Of a stretch of DNA of 43,117 bases, positions 1 to 37,305 are shown in pieces. This DNA comes from an uncultured Pseudomonadota bacterium. Lineage in GTDB: Bacteria > Babelota > Babeliae > Babelales > UBA12409. Position numbers and translations under genes: made by a program. Each line of letters starts with the position of its first letter. The stretch's first letter is position 1. The notes below the pieces were generated by a model. The model did not search any database and was not told the origin of the DNA. It saw only the letters and a list, made by a program, of their open reading frames with translations. The stretch lies in the NCBI GenBank assembly GCA_964549515.1, contig CAZJVC010000001.1, positions 10,011 through 53,127 of the forward strand. The letters run 5' to 3'.

Positions 1-294
1 GCCATGCCCGTTCATCCTGCCATGCCCGTTCATCCTGCCATGCCCGTTCATCCTGAGCGGGAGTCGAAGGATACCCGTCAGATAAATCTAAAAAAGTTCC
101 TCGCACTTGATCTTCCACTACAAAAACGAGTTTTACTCGAATATCTCTACGAAGCTCACGTATCATTCACTATCAGTTCCGGCCTTATTGATGAAATCAT
201 TCGCTTCCTAAATAATAAAAAAAGTACCACGCATCATATCGACACGTGGTACATAATCAAAAAACAAGGAAGTTTTTTAATTAGACCAACCTGA
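1..294 (+). CDS. 3' part of an unknown CDS that continues upstream of the window. Its N-terminal visible part is encoded by the 3 x 18-bp tandem repeat (MPVHPA x3).
   Basis: The frame is open from base 1. The only Met codons lie inside the tandem repeat, so the real start is probably upstream. The C-terminal 60 aa are non-repetitive. Confidence 0.35.
   Translation, partial: AMPVHPAMPVHPAMPVHPERESKDTRQINLKKFLALDLPLQKRVLLEYLYEAHVSFTISSGLIDEIIRFLNNKKSTTHHIDTWYIIKKQGSFLIRPT
2..55. repeat. Three tandem copies of an 18-bp unit, ccatgcccgttcatcctg. The array is cut by the window edge and belongs to the GC-rich tcatcctgcc repeat family.
   Basis: Three perfect 18-bp copies can be read directly. The gttcatcctgcc core recurs at 37066-37080, 37150-37160 and 37196-37206. 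Confidence 0.9.
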
Positions 295-501
295 ACAACT
301 ATAAAAACAACCTCTAAGACAGTCCATATCAGTTGGCGGCCCTACAACAGGCTTTGGACACGACGAACATACAGCATCATAAGATGTGTCTGAACATGTT
401 ACTGGCGTTCCCCATAACCACGAAGTACAACATTCTTTTCCATCTGCTCGCAATGAACCTGCCATACCAAGTAAACTCAAAAATAATAATACTTTCTTCA
501 T
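277..501 (-). CDS. Small secreted cysteine-rich protein of about 74 aa with an N-terminal signal peptide and 9 Cys.
   Basis: An ATG at 499-501 sits 5 nt downstream of an AGGAGA ribosome-binding site on the minus strand. The sequence MKKVLLFLSLLGMAGSLRA is signal-peptide-like, and the mature part is Cys-rich. The ORF-track start at 519 is a GTG. Confidence 0.45.
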   Translation of the reverse strand: MKKVLLFLSLLGMAGSLRADGKECCTSWLWGTPVTCSDTSYDAVCSSCPKPVVGPPTDMDCLRGCFYSCSGWSN

Positions 502-718
502 TTTTCTCTCCTTTTTCACGAATCCAACCTTACACTTTAAGTTTACAGAAGAACTGCCTCAAAAATCAATGTTTTTTTGTTAAACAACGACCAATTAAAT
601 ACCGCGTGCGGGTCACTGTCAAACGCCAATAAAAAGGATCATTCGATATTATTCGTAGACTTAATCACCATAAAGTAACTATTATATAGTTGCGCTACAT
701 TAAAGACGGAGTTTTACA

Positions 719-1798
719 ATGATAGCAGAGATACGATCCAGCCGAAAATTACAGCTCGTTCTTGCGTGCATTATTTTTTCACTGTTCCTGCACGTCGTTA
801 TGGTATATTTCAATATCGTTTTTAATAAAGTTCAGGATTATCCTGCGCCTGAACTAAAAAAAATACCTCCACGAATACAAACCAAACAAAAACCAATGAC
901 CATGATGAAACAGCCACCGCAACCTACACGACGCATTCATCGTGCTGGTACAAGCAAGCAAGCACCAAAAACAGAAAAGGCTTTGGCACCACAAAAACCA
1001 AAGCAAGCGCTCCCTCTCCCTTCCGCTGCACAACCAACACCACAACCTCCTCAACAAAAACCTCCTGAGCCCAAACAAGAACCAAAACAGGCACCGCCTA
1101 AACAGGTCTCACCTGAACAGGTCTCACCTAAACAGGTCTCACCTGAACGAATCAAGCCCAAACAGACCCAACAGGCCCATCCTAAACAAAGAATAAAAAA
1201 GACAACACAAAAAAAAGAACCTAAACCGCCGCGACAAAAACCAGTCTCTGGACGACCAGCTATGAAAAAGTTCTTTGAAGATTCTCTCAAAGAAGAACAA
1301 ACCTCGTCTGAGCGAGCTACACAAACCGATGATGAAAGAAAAACGCTAAGCTTCCTTTCACCAAACAACTTATATCATTCAATGCGCGAGCGAGCACTTA
1401 CGCAACCACAGCCAGGCATTGCGGAACAGTATGGCGACATGAAATATCTACATTACAATCAAAAAATATATCAAGCATTGCAACAGGCTATGAATATTGT
1501 CGTACGCAATCTACCTCGAGCACAGTATCAATCAGCCCTTGAATCTATTCAACACCCCGCTCGCATACGATTTGCAGTTGATAAAAATGGAAAACTAAAA
1601 GGACTTAGCCTTGTAACATCATCGGGCAATCCATATTATGATATGATTGCACAACAAGTAATCCGCGAAGCATCCTATCCACCAATACCAAAGTCCTTTA
1701 ACATGAATACGACGTATCATACATACGGCATAATACTGTATAATGATGGCAGTCCACAAAACAATCTCGGCGTCTCACCATACCTTGAAGGAGAATAA
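719..1798 (+). CDS. TonB-family energy transducer with an N-terminal TM anchor, a Pro/Lys-rich linker and a TonB C-terminal domain.
   Basis: There is a TM helix (LQLVLACIIFSLFLHVVMVYF), a long P/K/Q-rich low-complexity spacer, and a C-terminus (ARIRFAVDKNGKLKGLSLVTSSGNPYYDMIAQQVIREASYPPIP) that matches the TonB_C pattern. It contains an in-frame 15-bp x3 repeat at 1097-1148. Confidence 0.7.
   Translation: MIAEIRSSRKLQLVLACIIFSLFLHVVMVYFNIVFNKVQDYPAPELKKIPPRIQTKQKPMTMMKQPPQPTRRIHRAGTSKQAPKTEKALAPQKPKQALPLPSAAQPTPQPPQQKPPEPKQEPKQAPPKQVSPEQVSPKQVSPERIKPKQTQQAHPKQRIKKTTQKKEPKPPRQKPVSGRPAMKKFFEDSLKEEQTSSERATQTDDERKTLSFLSPNNLYHSMRERALTQPQPGIAEQYGDMKYLHYNQKIYQALQQAMNIVVRNLPRAQYQSALESIQHPARIRFAVDKNGKLKGLSLVTSSGNPYYDMIAQQVIREASYPPIPKSFNMNTTYHTYGIILYNDGSPQNNLGVSPYLEGE
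1097..1148. repeat. Three tandem copies of a 15-bp aacaggtctcacctg unit of the CAGG/CCTG family, lying in frame inside the TonB-like CDS and encoding VSPEQVSPKQVSPE.
   Basis: The tandem copies can be read directly and are the same unit as the intergenic array at 7210-7299. Confidence 0.9.
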
Positions 1799-1807
1799 TA
1801 AAACAAC

Positions 1808-36654: not shown

Positions 36655-36689
36655 AAAAAAAGACCGGCATATTCTTTGATATGCCGGTC
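36655..36689 (-). terminator. Rho-independent terminator serving the minus strand.
   Basis: On the minus strand an 11-bp stem (gaccggcatat/atatgccggtc) is followed by T7. It lies downstream of the flavoprotein remnant. Confidence 0.6.
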
Positions 36690-36844
36690 GAGTAGTAATT
36701 TTACCATATCTAATTATCTATAATCCGAAGATGATAAATAACTAAAACGCTAACCACCACTACTCAATAATCAGTATACAGAAATTTACAAATAGAAAAC
36801 AAGCTTTTGTACAAAAAAGTTTAAACTTTTTTCAATCCAAGCAT

Positions 36845-37030
36845 CTAACGGACCAATTCAGCTGCATTTTGTCCAGCAATTCGTCCAAAAACTACGCATT
36901 CGAGCAGTGAATTGCCACAAAGACGATTTGCTCCGTGCAAGCCACCAGTAACCTCCCCTGCTGCAAAAAGATTCTTAATCCTGCCATTAGAGCGTTTTTT
37001 TGCGGGTTCCTTATCGACAGCTGGAAAAAC
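36845..37030 (-). pseudogene. Remnant of about 60 codons from the C-terminus of a succinate dehydrogenase / fumarate reductase / L-aspartate oxidase flavoprotein gene.
   Basis: Minus-strand translation gives [42 protein letters not shown]. This matches the conserved FAD-binding C-terminal motif of the SdhA/FrdA/NadB family ([25 protein letters not shown]). An in-frame stop sits just upstream, and the GC-rich repeat at 37066 abuts it. Confidence 0.55.
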
Positions 37031-37065
37031 TTATTCAATTCTATAACTTGCGGTTTTTTTTCTTC

Positions 37066-37305
37066 GTTCATCCTGCCGTGCCCGCCCCTTCGTCAAGCTC
37101 AGGGTAAACTACATCCTGAGTAGCACAAAGTGCGTATCGAAGGGTCCGCTCATCCTGCCCTTCGACAGGCTCAGGATAAAATTGTATCGAAGGACGCTCA
37201 TCCTGCCTATCCGCCATAGCTTTAGCGACGGCTGGGAGTGATTTGCGAAGCAAATTGTATCGAAGGACGAAAATACTCAGGATAAACTCTGGGTGCGAGC
37301 GAATT
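37066..37305. repeat. GC-rich dispersed repeat element (copy 3) with an internal, degenerate tandem structure.
   Basis: It contains gtatcgaagg x3, ctcaggataaa x3 and cgctcatcctgcc x3, and shares segments with 1-80 and 5461-5590. Its GC content is far above the surrounding sequence. Confidence 0.75.

Follow-up and report, generated by a model that had tools for sequence, protein, structure and literature searches.

The stretch of DNA studied here, referred to as the window, comprises 43,117 nucleotides of a bacterial chromosome (contig CAZJVC010000001.1), and this work concerns three short islands in it that are richer in G+C (GC) than the 38.9% background and carry copies of a hairpin-forming repeat. 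The minus strand carries the str/S10/spc/alpha ribosomal operons at about 16.2-35.2 kb, and there is a single tRNA-Met at 13137-13212. The best named relatives of the RpoA protein are all "Candidatus Dependentiae bacterium" (79%, 69% and 67% identity) and the gene order of the rpoA region agrees with that of three other Dependentiae contigs; on this basis the window is assigned to a Dependentiae (TM6) bacterium. The same sequence was found again in metagenome assemblies from ENA, JGI (an Antarctic-lake-type sample series) and Logan, and metagenome contigs from many samples that carry the window's genes end at the islands.

The islands have GC fractions of 0.63 (1-80), 0.62 (5456-5540) and 0.58 (37116-37175), and every sequence block that the original prediction had listed as shared among them was recovered in its place. 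One block, CGYTCATCCTRCC, occurs seven times in the window, always on the plus strand, with 0.07 occurrences expected from shuffled sequences; another, GTATCGAAGG, occurs three times with 0.04 expected. The islands are modular copies, mosaics of one frame hairpin and nested hairpin modules, because copies with both modules, with one or with neither exist and because short units in reverse orientation are nested in the loops. The frame consists of a tag, CCG(C/T)TC, an outer stem (P1), ATCCT…AGGAT, and a conserved CTGAG…TCGAAG core, with at most two further hairpins, P2 and P3, nested in it. This arrangement accounts for every block of the original list (Table 1).

Table 1. Positions of the repeat units and of other features in the window, and of hairpin clusters in the alphaproteobacterial metagenome-assembled genome (MAG) M2405.
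Feature	Sequence	Positions	Strand	Details
3' end of a protein-coding open reading frame (ORF) holding island 1 in frame, possibly tilS	Window	1-294	+	Frame 1, stop 292-294
18-bp tandem array, GCCATGCCCGTTCATCCT x3.1	Window	1-55	+	Reiterated 5' part of the element (tag and 5' arm of outer stem), read as (PAMPVH)n
Minimal unit	Window	44-72	+	Tag CCGTTC 44-49, ATCCT 50-54, core GAGCGGGAGTCGA 55-67, AGGAT 68-72
Island 2, full composite element, 3' flank of dnaJ	Window	5461-5568	+	Model and orthologous-locus alignment
Island 2, tag and P1 5' arm	Window	5461-5471		
Island 2, P2	Window	5478-5503		
Island 2, P2 arms	Window	5478-5483, 5498-5503		CCAGCC and GGCTGG, perfect 6-bp inverted arms of the inverted core
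Island 2, inverted core	Window	5484-5497	+	GTCGCTAAAGCTAT, 14 nt, reverse complement of canonical ATAGCTTTAGCGAC
Island 2, P3	Window	5509-5538	+	CCCTTC-GTA-GC..GC-GAA-GTAGGG
Island 2, degenerate 3' part	Window	5539-5568		
Island 3, unit A	Window	37063-37143	+	Frame 5' part, reverse short unit CCCCTTCGTCAAGCTCAGGG, forward short unit with small hairpin CATCCTGAGTAGCACAAAGTGCGTATCGAAGGG
Island 3, unit B	Window	37144-37194	+	CCGCTCATCCTGCC, reverse short unit CTTCGACAGGCTCAGGAT, GTATCGAAGGA
Island 3, unit C, canonical full copy	Window	37195-37268	+	Tag CGCTC, P1 ATCCT 37200-37204 / AGGA 37264-37267
Unit C, P2	Window	37211-37236	+	Canonical core ATAGCTTTAGCGAC 37216-37229, then AGTG
Unit C, P3	Window	37241-37255	+	ATTTGC-GAA-GCAAAT, then TGTATCGA
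Island 3, trailing partial unit	Window	37269-37305	+	CGAAAATACTCAGGATAAACTCTGGGTGCGAGCGAAT with CTCAGGATAAACTC module
Hsp20/GvpH-like	Window	40106-40648	-	Gas-vesicle cluster
GvpL/F	Window	40940-41710	-	Gas-vesicle cluster, E 3.7e-60
GvpK	Window	41707-42030	-	Gas-vesicle cluster
GvpA-type Gas_vesicle protein	Window	42511-42864	-	Gas-vesicle cluster
Second repeat family units	Window	1086-1165, 2087-2154, 7210-7301, 12830-12882, 36599-36650	Both	
Minimal-hairpin cluster	L068	6579-7078		Alternating spacings of ~61 and 74 nt
Minimal-hairpin cluster	L031	4668-5646		Alternating spacings of ~61 and 74 nt
Minimal-hairpin cluster	L060	4638-5189		Alternating spacings of ~61 and 74 nt

All three islands had been described as intergenic, but island 1 lies within a protein-coding ORF that leaves the window at its left end and stays open through to its stop codon; in contig L002 a further repeat unit lies within its upstream extension. 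When the ORF fragment was used in a protein search, one partial homolog alone was returned, P0012, which is 54% identical over the C-terminal 74 amino acids and carries no repeat-encoded peptides, so that about 57-66 residues of the island 1 protein are repeat-encoded. The protein is possibly TilS, judging from a motif that we recognised and a weak Pfam match (E 0.19); Pfam found no family in P0012. The 18-bp array reported at this island exists, with its 3.1 copies at 100% identity, but it does not stand at the start of the ORF. L002 lacks one of the 18-bp units that the window has, indicating that the copy number differs between strains. The covariance model described below matches island 1 at 22-76 on the plus strand (17.3 bits, E 0.0013). 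In contig L005 (JGI 3300025661), bases 1-170 are unrelated DNA standing upstream of window position ~560 in place of window ~300-560; this strain-level rearrangement adjoins island 1, and the end of the repeat-bearing ORF is lost.

The same model matches island 2 at 5457-5556 on the plus strand (35.2 bits, E 8e-10), and the P2 of that island alone matches it on the minus strand (5480-5500, 19.4 bits). In island 3, unit A is matched at 37060-37149 (+) with 21.7 bits, and the type of unit B recurs in L002 (97-150) and fits the pattern of the pan-phylum scan presented below. Unit C gave the strongest match, at 37190-37272 (+) with 85.8 bits (E 2e-27), to a model built from other contigs only; its sequence is identical in contigs L088-L091, and island 3 is invariant in five contigs. 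The CTCAGGATAAACTC module of the trailing unit is also present in the insertion of L003/L004 and in L098, L106 and L118. As only three loci occur in 43 kb and the composition of the islands is foreign to the genome, it might have been proposed that they reflect chance similarity, GC-rich DNA of low complexity, or what is left of a single foreign element that once integrated. This is refuted by block counts 70-100 times above the shuffled expectation, by the score of unit C under an independent model and by the presence of the family at dozens of unrelated loci, and we give it practically no weight. Moreover, no recombinase, integrase or transposase gene lies in the window, and hence nothing indicates the site-specific recombination site or integrated element that had also been suggested.

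Two further places were considered as family members and not retained. The stretch adjacent to the tRNA gene (13215-13260) had been taken for a fragment of the repeat; the family model gave no match there even at E<=10 with filters off, and the resemblance consists of one 9-mer, CCGTTCATC, plus gctcag, in a sequence that is not conserved in related genomes. A 13-mer at 14723, inside a gene, is isolated and has no other family blocks nearby. A probable pseudogene remnant lies between rseP and island 3, at 36845-36940 (-); it is a short peptide that resembles NadB/SdhA-type flavoproteins in their conserved core. In contig L092 the region 3' of rseP (terminator-like palindrome and pseudogene remnant) is locally duplicated (4300-4770), just ahead of the point where island 3 starts in other strains; L092 was examined as a possible site without the element and, being a local duplication, is uninformative.

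Copies beyond the window were collected by scanning metagenome contigs for the P2 hairpin beside TGGGAGTG, with both orientations and all hybrid forms allowed. The scan gave 45 loci, representing 40 distinct real copies, nearly all on contigs of 31-44% GC, in a collection that is incomplete, since two JGI contigs known to carry the dnaJ locus of island 2 are absent from it. The common layout is CCGCTC-ATCCT-GCCTG-(P2)-AGTG-(P3, variable hairpin)-TGTATCGA-AGGA. P2 reads CCCGCC ATA GC, a loop of 4-8 nt, then GC GAC GGC (T) GGG, and the variable stem of P3 in most cases ends in a C-GNA-G triloop. With P2 and P3 nested in the loop of the frame, Dependentiae copies make a three-way junction that spans roughly 85-100 nt. 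The fold and the covariance model are based on 22 distinct metagenomic copies, aligned without constraint, and RNAalifold recovered the same three-stem fold from this alignment. Paired cells reach 96.8% in these copies, compared with 85.8% after shuffling (the observed value was reached in 0 of 500 shuffles) and 33-52% with slid partners, and both sides have changed in six of the seven P3 pairs and two of the four P1 pairs. P2 variants lying outside the search pattern covary as well (GCC/GGC to GGC/GCC, CCC/GGG to TGC/GTA, GC/GC to GT/AC), and its 3x3 internal loop takes the alternative forms ATA/GAC, GAA/GAA and GAA/GTA. Thus, the covariance-model check for a structured fold that the original prediction had proposed revealed strong covariation.

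Applied to 358 kb of related contigs, the covariance model gave 77 matches across 57 loci; the repeat is therefore far from restricted to three copies. Among the matches are forms without P2, in which CATCCTG abuts AGTG-P3-TGTATCGAAGG, forms without P3 and minimal forms. The short form of P3 has a 3-nt loop, which reads GNA in 14 of 16 cases and is closed by C:G in 15 of 16, GCGAAGC being common, and the long form carries an additional GC..GC hairpin inside its loop. Reverse short units, CCCTTCGnnnnGCTCAGGATAAACTCCG, are placed in the loops of P2 or P3, or stand instead of the 3' arm (L098, L106, L109, L118), and they are also found in the L003/L004 allele and in units A and B of the window.

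The copies are mostly intergenic, in either orientation, and sometimes in frame within genes, as in L127, where one separates domain N from domain C in a heparinase II/III protein. Pairs in inverted arrangement, spaced 100-400 nt, occur in L116, L133, L101, L111 and L123, with none in the window, and tandem pairs in L118. The upstream gene is on the strand of the copy in 22 of 37 cases and on the opposite strand in 15, that is, with no bias. The neighbours are housekeeping genes and ankyrin-repeat proteins, and in the neighbour-gene search no protein family recurs beside the copies. DnaJ of L113 shares 59% identity with that of the window, and TyrRS of L137 shares 63% with its counterpart on a Dependentiae contig. 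No copies lie in the syntenic rpoA regions of three related Dependentiae or in the rpoA region of the window itself, and a viral contig scan and a plasmid blastn search found no copies. Ankyrin-repeat proteins are the commonest listed Pfam family beside the L098-L142 copies (4 of 148 ORFs) and a NurA domain appears twice, which fits host-associated bacteria.

Taken together, we consider it reasonably likely that the islands represent an interspersed, non-autonomous repeat with hairpin structure in a Dependentiae genome, of the type of repetitive extragenic palindromes (REP) or Rickettsia palindromic elements (RPE); the family is dispersed over Dependentiae-like genomes of uncultured bacteria and is probably selfish DNA. 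The element would act at the DNA level, its top strand folding when single-stranded; the tag and hairpin might be recognised by a putative trans-acting enzyme (HUH/RAYT-like or other, RAYT standing for REP-associated tyrosine transposase), or the element might be copied by template switching at the hairpins. GCGAAGC is a classic stable DNA minihairpin, and the DNA-type triloops, the free orientation, the nesting and the intragenic copies favour DNA over RNA. Several observations weigh against this interpretation. No transposase was found among the listed Pfam families of 148 ORFs beside copies, nor among the 25 commonest Pfam families of 118 ORFs in the high-copy alphaproteobacterial MAG, and the window has no transposase, RAYT, recombinase, integrase or invertase gene. 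There is no orientation bias relative to the local GC skew (14 vs 17), which counts here since transposition from the lagging-strand template might produce one. All strain contigs at the loci of islands 2 and 3 carry the element, so that no empty orthologous site marks the termini, the target preference or any target duplication, and mobility is inferred from dispersal, nesting and polymorphism. Folding energies are only weakly better than those of shuffled sequences (z -0.8 to -1.2). Finally, about 10% of the paired cells are G.U or U.G, which means that the full fold exists on one strand only, and these cells, together with the conserved unpaired junction nucleotides (TGGGAGTG, TGTATCGA), suit a transcribed RNA equally.

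The islands might indeed be a structured non-coding RNA, either a regulatory or stabilising element of 3' untranslated regions or a small ribozyme within a selfish repeat, with the three-way junction as the functional fold. The strand-specific fold implied by strong covariation with G.U pairs, the invariant unpaired junction nucleotides, the conserved non-Watson-Crick internal loops (ATA/GAC, GAA/GAA), the greater stability of the top strand in 15 of the 22 copies and the co-orientation of all three window copies with their flanking genes are in keeping with this idea. However, the mixed orientation relative to upstream genes, the copies within ORFs, in inverted or tandem pairs and nested in each other, the C-GNA-G triloops at the apices in place of GNRA or UNCG tetraloops, and the lack of a recurrent neighbour gene make an RNA function unlikely. 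Since there is no bias with respect to genes or to GC skew, neither of these two tests separates RNA from DNA. No Rfam 15 family matches the element even at E<=10: only the tRNA passes the gathering threshold in the window, and at E<=10 the islands have sub-threshold chance matches only (SAH, 18.3 bits vs 37; trpB, 19.1 vs 59). The shared blocks thus correspond to no known structured RNA family. A hammerhead-like reading of CUGAG…CGAAG was rejected, as the core has neither G8 nor GAAA and its junctions are of unsuitable length.

The original prediction had compared the islands to REP or to miniature inverted-repeat transposable elements (MITE). The dispersed hairpin repeat that this implies was found on dozens of low-GC contigs. 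A classical MITE, derived from an insertion sequence by deletion and mobilised by a DDE transposase that acts on terminal inverted repeats and leaves target-site duplications, would also be small, non-coding, dispersed, polymorphic and sometimes nested, and the outer stem ATCCT/AGGAT can be read as very short terminal inverted repeats. These "terminal repeats" are nevertheless only 4-5 bp long and covary between copies like a stem, the 5' tag is asymmetric, no flanking direct repeats were seen in the aligned copies, and neither a parent insertion sequence nor a transposase appeared, among the families listed, near about 60 sampled loci. With no terminal inverted repeats and no target-site duplication identified, the strict MITE reading is not shown, and we regard it as distinctly improbable.

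Searches of the main REP catalogues and of a literature collection comprising 8 million full texts with the repeat peptides, the core DNA strings and Dependentiae palindromes returned no relevant description. The core strings are absent from the REP/MITE literature examined, including PMC3733652 and its text supplements, in which TCGAAGG, CCTTCGA, CTGAGC and GCTCAG do not occur. The closest architecture is that of the CGTC-tagged palindromic repeats (CGTC-1 to -4). Rickettsia RPE-4/RPE-6 and Neisseria dRS3 belong to these repeats, which are known from several phyla, with in-frame intragenic copies and no linked transposase (Di Nocera et al. 2013, PMC3733652). Their plan is a terminal CGTC (or TGTC/CCTC) tag, an 8-9-bp stem starting with AT, a 4-5-nt loop and a 3-nt tail; CGTC-1, for instance, reads CGTC-ATTCCCGC-GAAA-GCGGGAAT and encodes VIPAKAGI/SFPRKRES (PMC3733652). 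Our repeat likewise has a short unpaired 5' tag (CG(C/T)TC instead of CGTC) and a stem starting with AT in low-GC hosts, and counting the T-A, G.A, A.G, G-C continuation brings it to about eight "pairs" around a 5-nt loop; it also occurs in several phyla including obligate intracellular bacteria, forms head-to-head dimers, has in-frame intragenic copies and is associated with no transposase gene. In contrast to CGTC-1, the unit reads ATCCTGAG-C..GT-CGAAGGAT, and it differs from the CGTC repeats in a tag one base longer, in tandem G.A mismatches in the core and in the extra hairpins nested in the loop, which produce the three-way junction.

The repeats tagged with GTAG (GTAG REPs, REPINs with RAYT) and the bacterial interspersed mosaic elements (BIMEs) of enterobacteria are also short imperfect palindromes with a one-sided tag and G.T pairs in the stems, mostly extragenic, and occur as singlets, inverted doublets and mosaic clusters of alternating orientation (PMC2817692, PMC3116915), as here. 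Unlike them, the present family has no GT(A/G)G tag, CCG(C/T)TC being found in nearly all copies, and no RAYT gene in the window or among the listed neighbour families; its core is common to at least seven phyla, in contrast to the lineage-specific REP/RAYT pairs, and it has nested modules. Rickettsia palindromic elements reportedly insert in frame into protein-coding genes (Ogata et al.). Comparable in-frame insertions are present in our data, namely island 1, whose homolog P0012 is without the segment, and the L127 copy. RPE and the QMITE1/2 elements of Coxiella (PMC5896051) resemble the family in being palindromic repeats of reduced intracellular genomes whose in-frame insertions add peptides. 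The likeness is one of description, the host phylum is another, and the RPE-4/-6 peptides given in PMC3733652 differ from those encoded here. QMITE2 carries a GTAG REP and 7-11-nt direct repeats (PMC5896051), neither of which was seen in our copies. The P3 tips read GCGAAGC or close variants of it. The d(GCGAAGC) or C-GNA-G minihairpins of DNA, said to have been described by Hirao, Yoshizawa et al., are isolated motifs at phage origins and similar places and not modules of a dispersed repeat. A CGTC-like architecture with another sequence and tag, and without GTAG, RAYT or MITE hallmarks, thus places the family among elements of the REP/RPE kind but outside the named families. It would be the first interspersed repeat family described for Dependentiae and would account for breaks in the assembly of Dependentiae MAGs, for their spurious ORFs and for peptides inserted into genuine proteins; the covariance model recognises its copies and can be used for masking or for a census.

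The frame hairpin alone is more widespread. It consists of a 4-bp covarying stem around the invariant TGAGCYTGTCGAA, and bacteria of at least seven phyla carry it. When one genome per species was scanned for CATCCTGCCCTTCG-N4-7-CTCAGG, 81 loci were obtained, with dozens of copies in one alphaproteobacterial MAG and further carriers in Actinomycetota, Burkholderiales, Sphingomonas, Mesorhizobium, Chloroflexota, Bacteroidota, Verrucomicrobiota, Cyanobacteria and Acidobacteriota. At least four complementary pairs flank 151 of the 203 TGAGC..GTCGAA cores in these loci, with stems as different as GCCC/GGGC, GGGC/GCCC, GTCC/GGAC, GTGC/GCAC, ATGC/GCAT, ACCC/GGGT and ATCC/GGAT. In the 42 units that were not forced by the search pattern, one pair is UA in 19, CG in 9 and GC in 9, and the next is GC in 18 and CG in 16; the covariation score over the four stem pairs is 0.564 compared with 0.201 in shuffles, and the 13 bases at the centre show little or no variation. 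The core can be drawn as extending the helix by T-A, G.A, A.G and G-C around a 5-nt loop, and the 5' tag CCGTTC/CCGCTC is common to pan-phylum and Dependentiae copies. In M2405 the minimal hairpin forms clusters of 6-10 units that look like BIME arrays, and 95 units were counted in 182 kb of sampled loci of this MAG. The translated forms …LSLSKG… and …PFDKLRANG… are common in spurious ORFs, and presumably point to a widespread, unnamed element. A core that extends from Actinomycetota to Bacteroidota and Cyanobacteria is not explained by lineage-specific co-evolution of REP and RAYT. We raise, with low confidence, the possibility that the CCG(Y)TC-tagged hairpin is an undescribed element of at least seven phyla, elaborated in Dependentiae to a conserved three-way junction, that could serve as the recognition structure of a widespread mobilisation or processing machinery, or as a functional RNA or ribozyme, and would then be more than a further lineage-specific REP. 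Which conserved machinery or horizontal route maintains the hairpin is the question that this distribution raises.

The original prediction had also noted that an internal segment is reversed between islands 2 and 3. Indeed, the 23 nt at 5478-5500 agree at 100% with the reverse complement of 37213-37235, and the flanking CGCTCATCCT(A/G)CC and TGGGAGTG keep the same orientation in both copies. Because the segments are reverse complements, the two ORFs that read PAVAKAMA, at 5475-5657 (+) and 37068-37319 (-), are artefacts, as had been proposed. The flip of about 22 bp is real at the dnaJ locus, although the part actually inverted is the inner 14 nt of P2. Comparison of ten contigs at this locus revealed three alleles: four contigs (window, L001, L002, L005) are flipped, CCAGCC-GTCGCTAAAGCTAT-GGCTGG; four with identical flanks (L006, L148, L149, L150) are canonical, CCAGCC-ATAGCTTTAGCGAC-GGCTGG; and two (L003, L004) are canonical with an insertion, reading CCCGCC-ATAGC, 64 nt of family modules and GAC-GGCTGG, a net gain of 58 nt in the P2 loop. 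Canonical copies elsewhere read CCCGCC…GGC(T)GGG, and CCAGCC is found only at the dnaJ locus, where the arms consequently form a perfect 6-bp inverted repeat. One set of downstream single-nucleotide polymorphisms (SNPs) is linked to the flipped allele and the other to the plain canonical allele, from which it follows that the orientation is fixed per lineage.

In favour of a programmed switch that toggles the 22-bp segment within a population, the sequence between short perfect inverted repeats is exactly inverted, and environmental samples contain both orientations. We consider such a switch very improbable: the invertible part is only 14 nt and its arms only 6 bp, the window has no invertase or recombinase gene, the orientation is tied to the SNP haplotypes of the flanks, and the locus, downstream of dnaJ, has no promoter-like logic. 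Moreover, all 40 other distinct copies are canonical even though the scan accepted both orientations, so that invertibility is not a property of the element and the flip is limited to one locus. It is a one-off, lineage-specific small inversion of the P2 tip separating two strain lineages. In the simplest account, a C-to-A change would have made the P2 arms perfectly complementary (CCAGCC/GGCTGG) and the 14 nt between them would then have inverted once, possibly through intrastrand template switching or recombination between the arms. The flipped allele could also stem from gene conversion over a short tract, with a partial copy in inverted orientation as donor, which speaks against an inversion in place. 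Small hairpin-associated inversions and quasipalindrome template-switch mutations are known from plastid non-coding DNA and from E. coli quasipalindromes. As in these cases, the sequence between the arms has become its exact reverse complement with fixed flanks and the two states segregate between close lineages; unlike them, the hairpin here belongs to a repeat element whose other copies are possible conversion donors. The dnaJ-locus alleles offer a clean natural case of hairpin-tip inversion and nested loop insertion, and they can be used as strain markers.

Three other features of the window were noted. A gas-vesicle gene cluster occupies 40106-42864 on the minus strand. Dependentiae are an uncultured group regarded as obligate intracellular parasites of protists, and as they are the closest named relatives of this genome, gas vesicles would be unexpected in it. 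The genome carrying these hairpin repeats has a gene for an SbcC/Rad50-like ATPase (AAA_23, SbcC_Walker_B) at 7371-9710 (-); the nuclease complex of the SbcC/Rad50 family cuts DNA hairpins. A second repeat family consists of 15-bp tandem units based on CCTGAACAGG (AACAGGTCCCACCTG and its reverse complement; ATCCTGAACAGGATA). Its units lie inside three ORFs (a TonB_2 protein, an amino oxidase and the C-terminal tail of GAPDH), between convergent genes and, as a palindrome, after rseP. The TonB_2 protein has 359 amino acids in the window and 364 in L150, a difference of one additional second-family unit in the latter.

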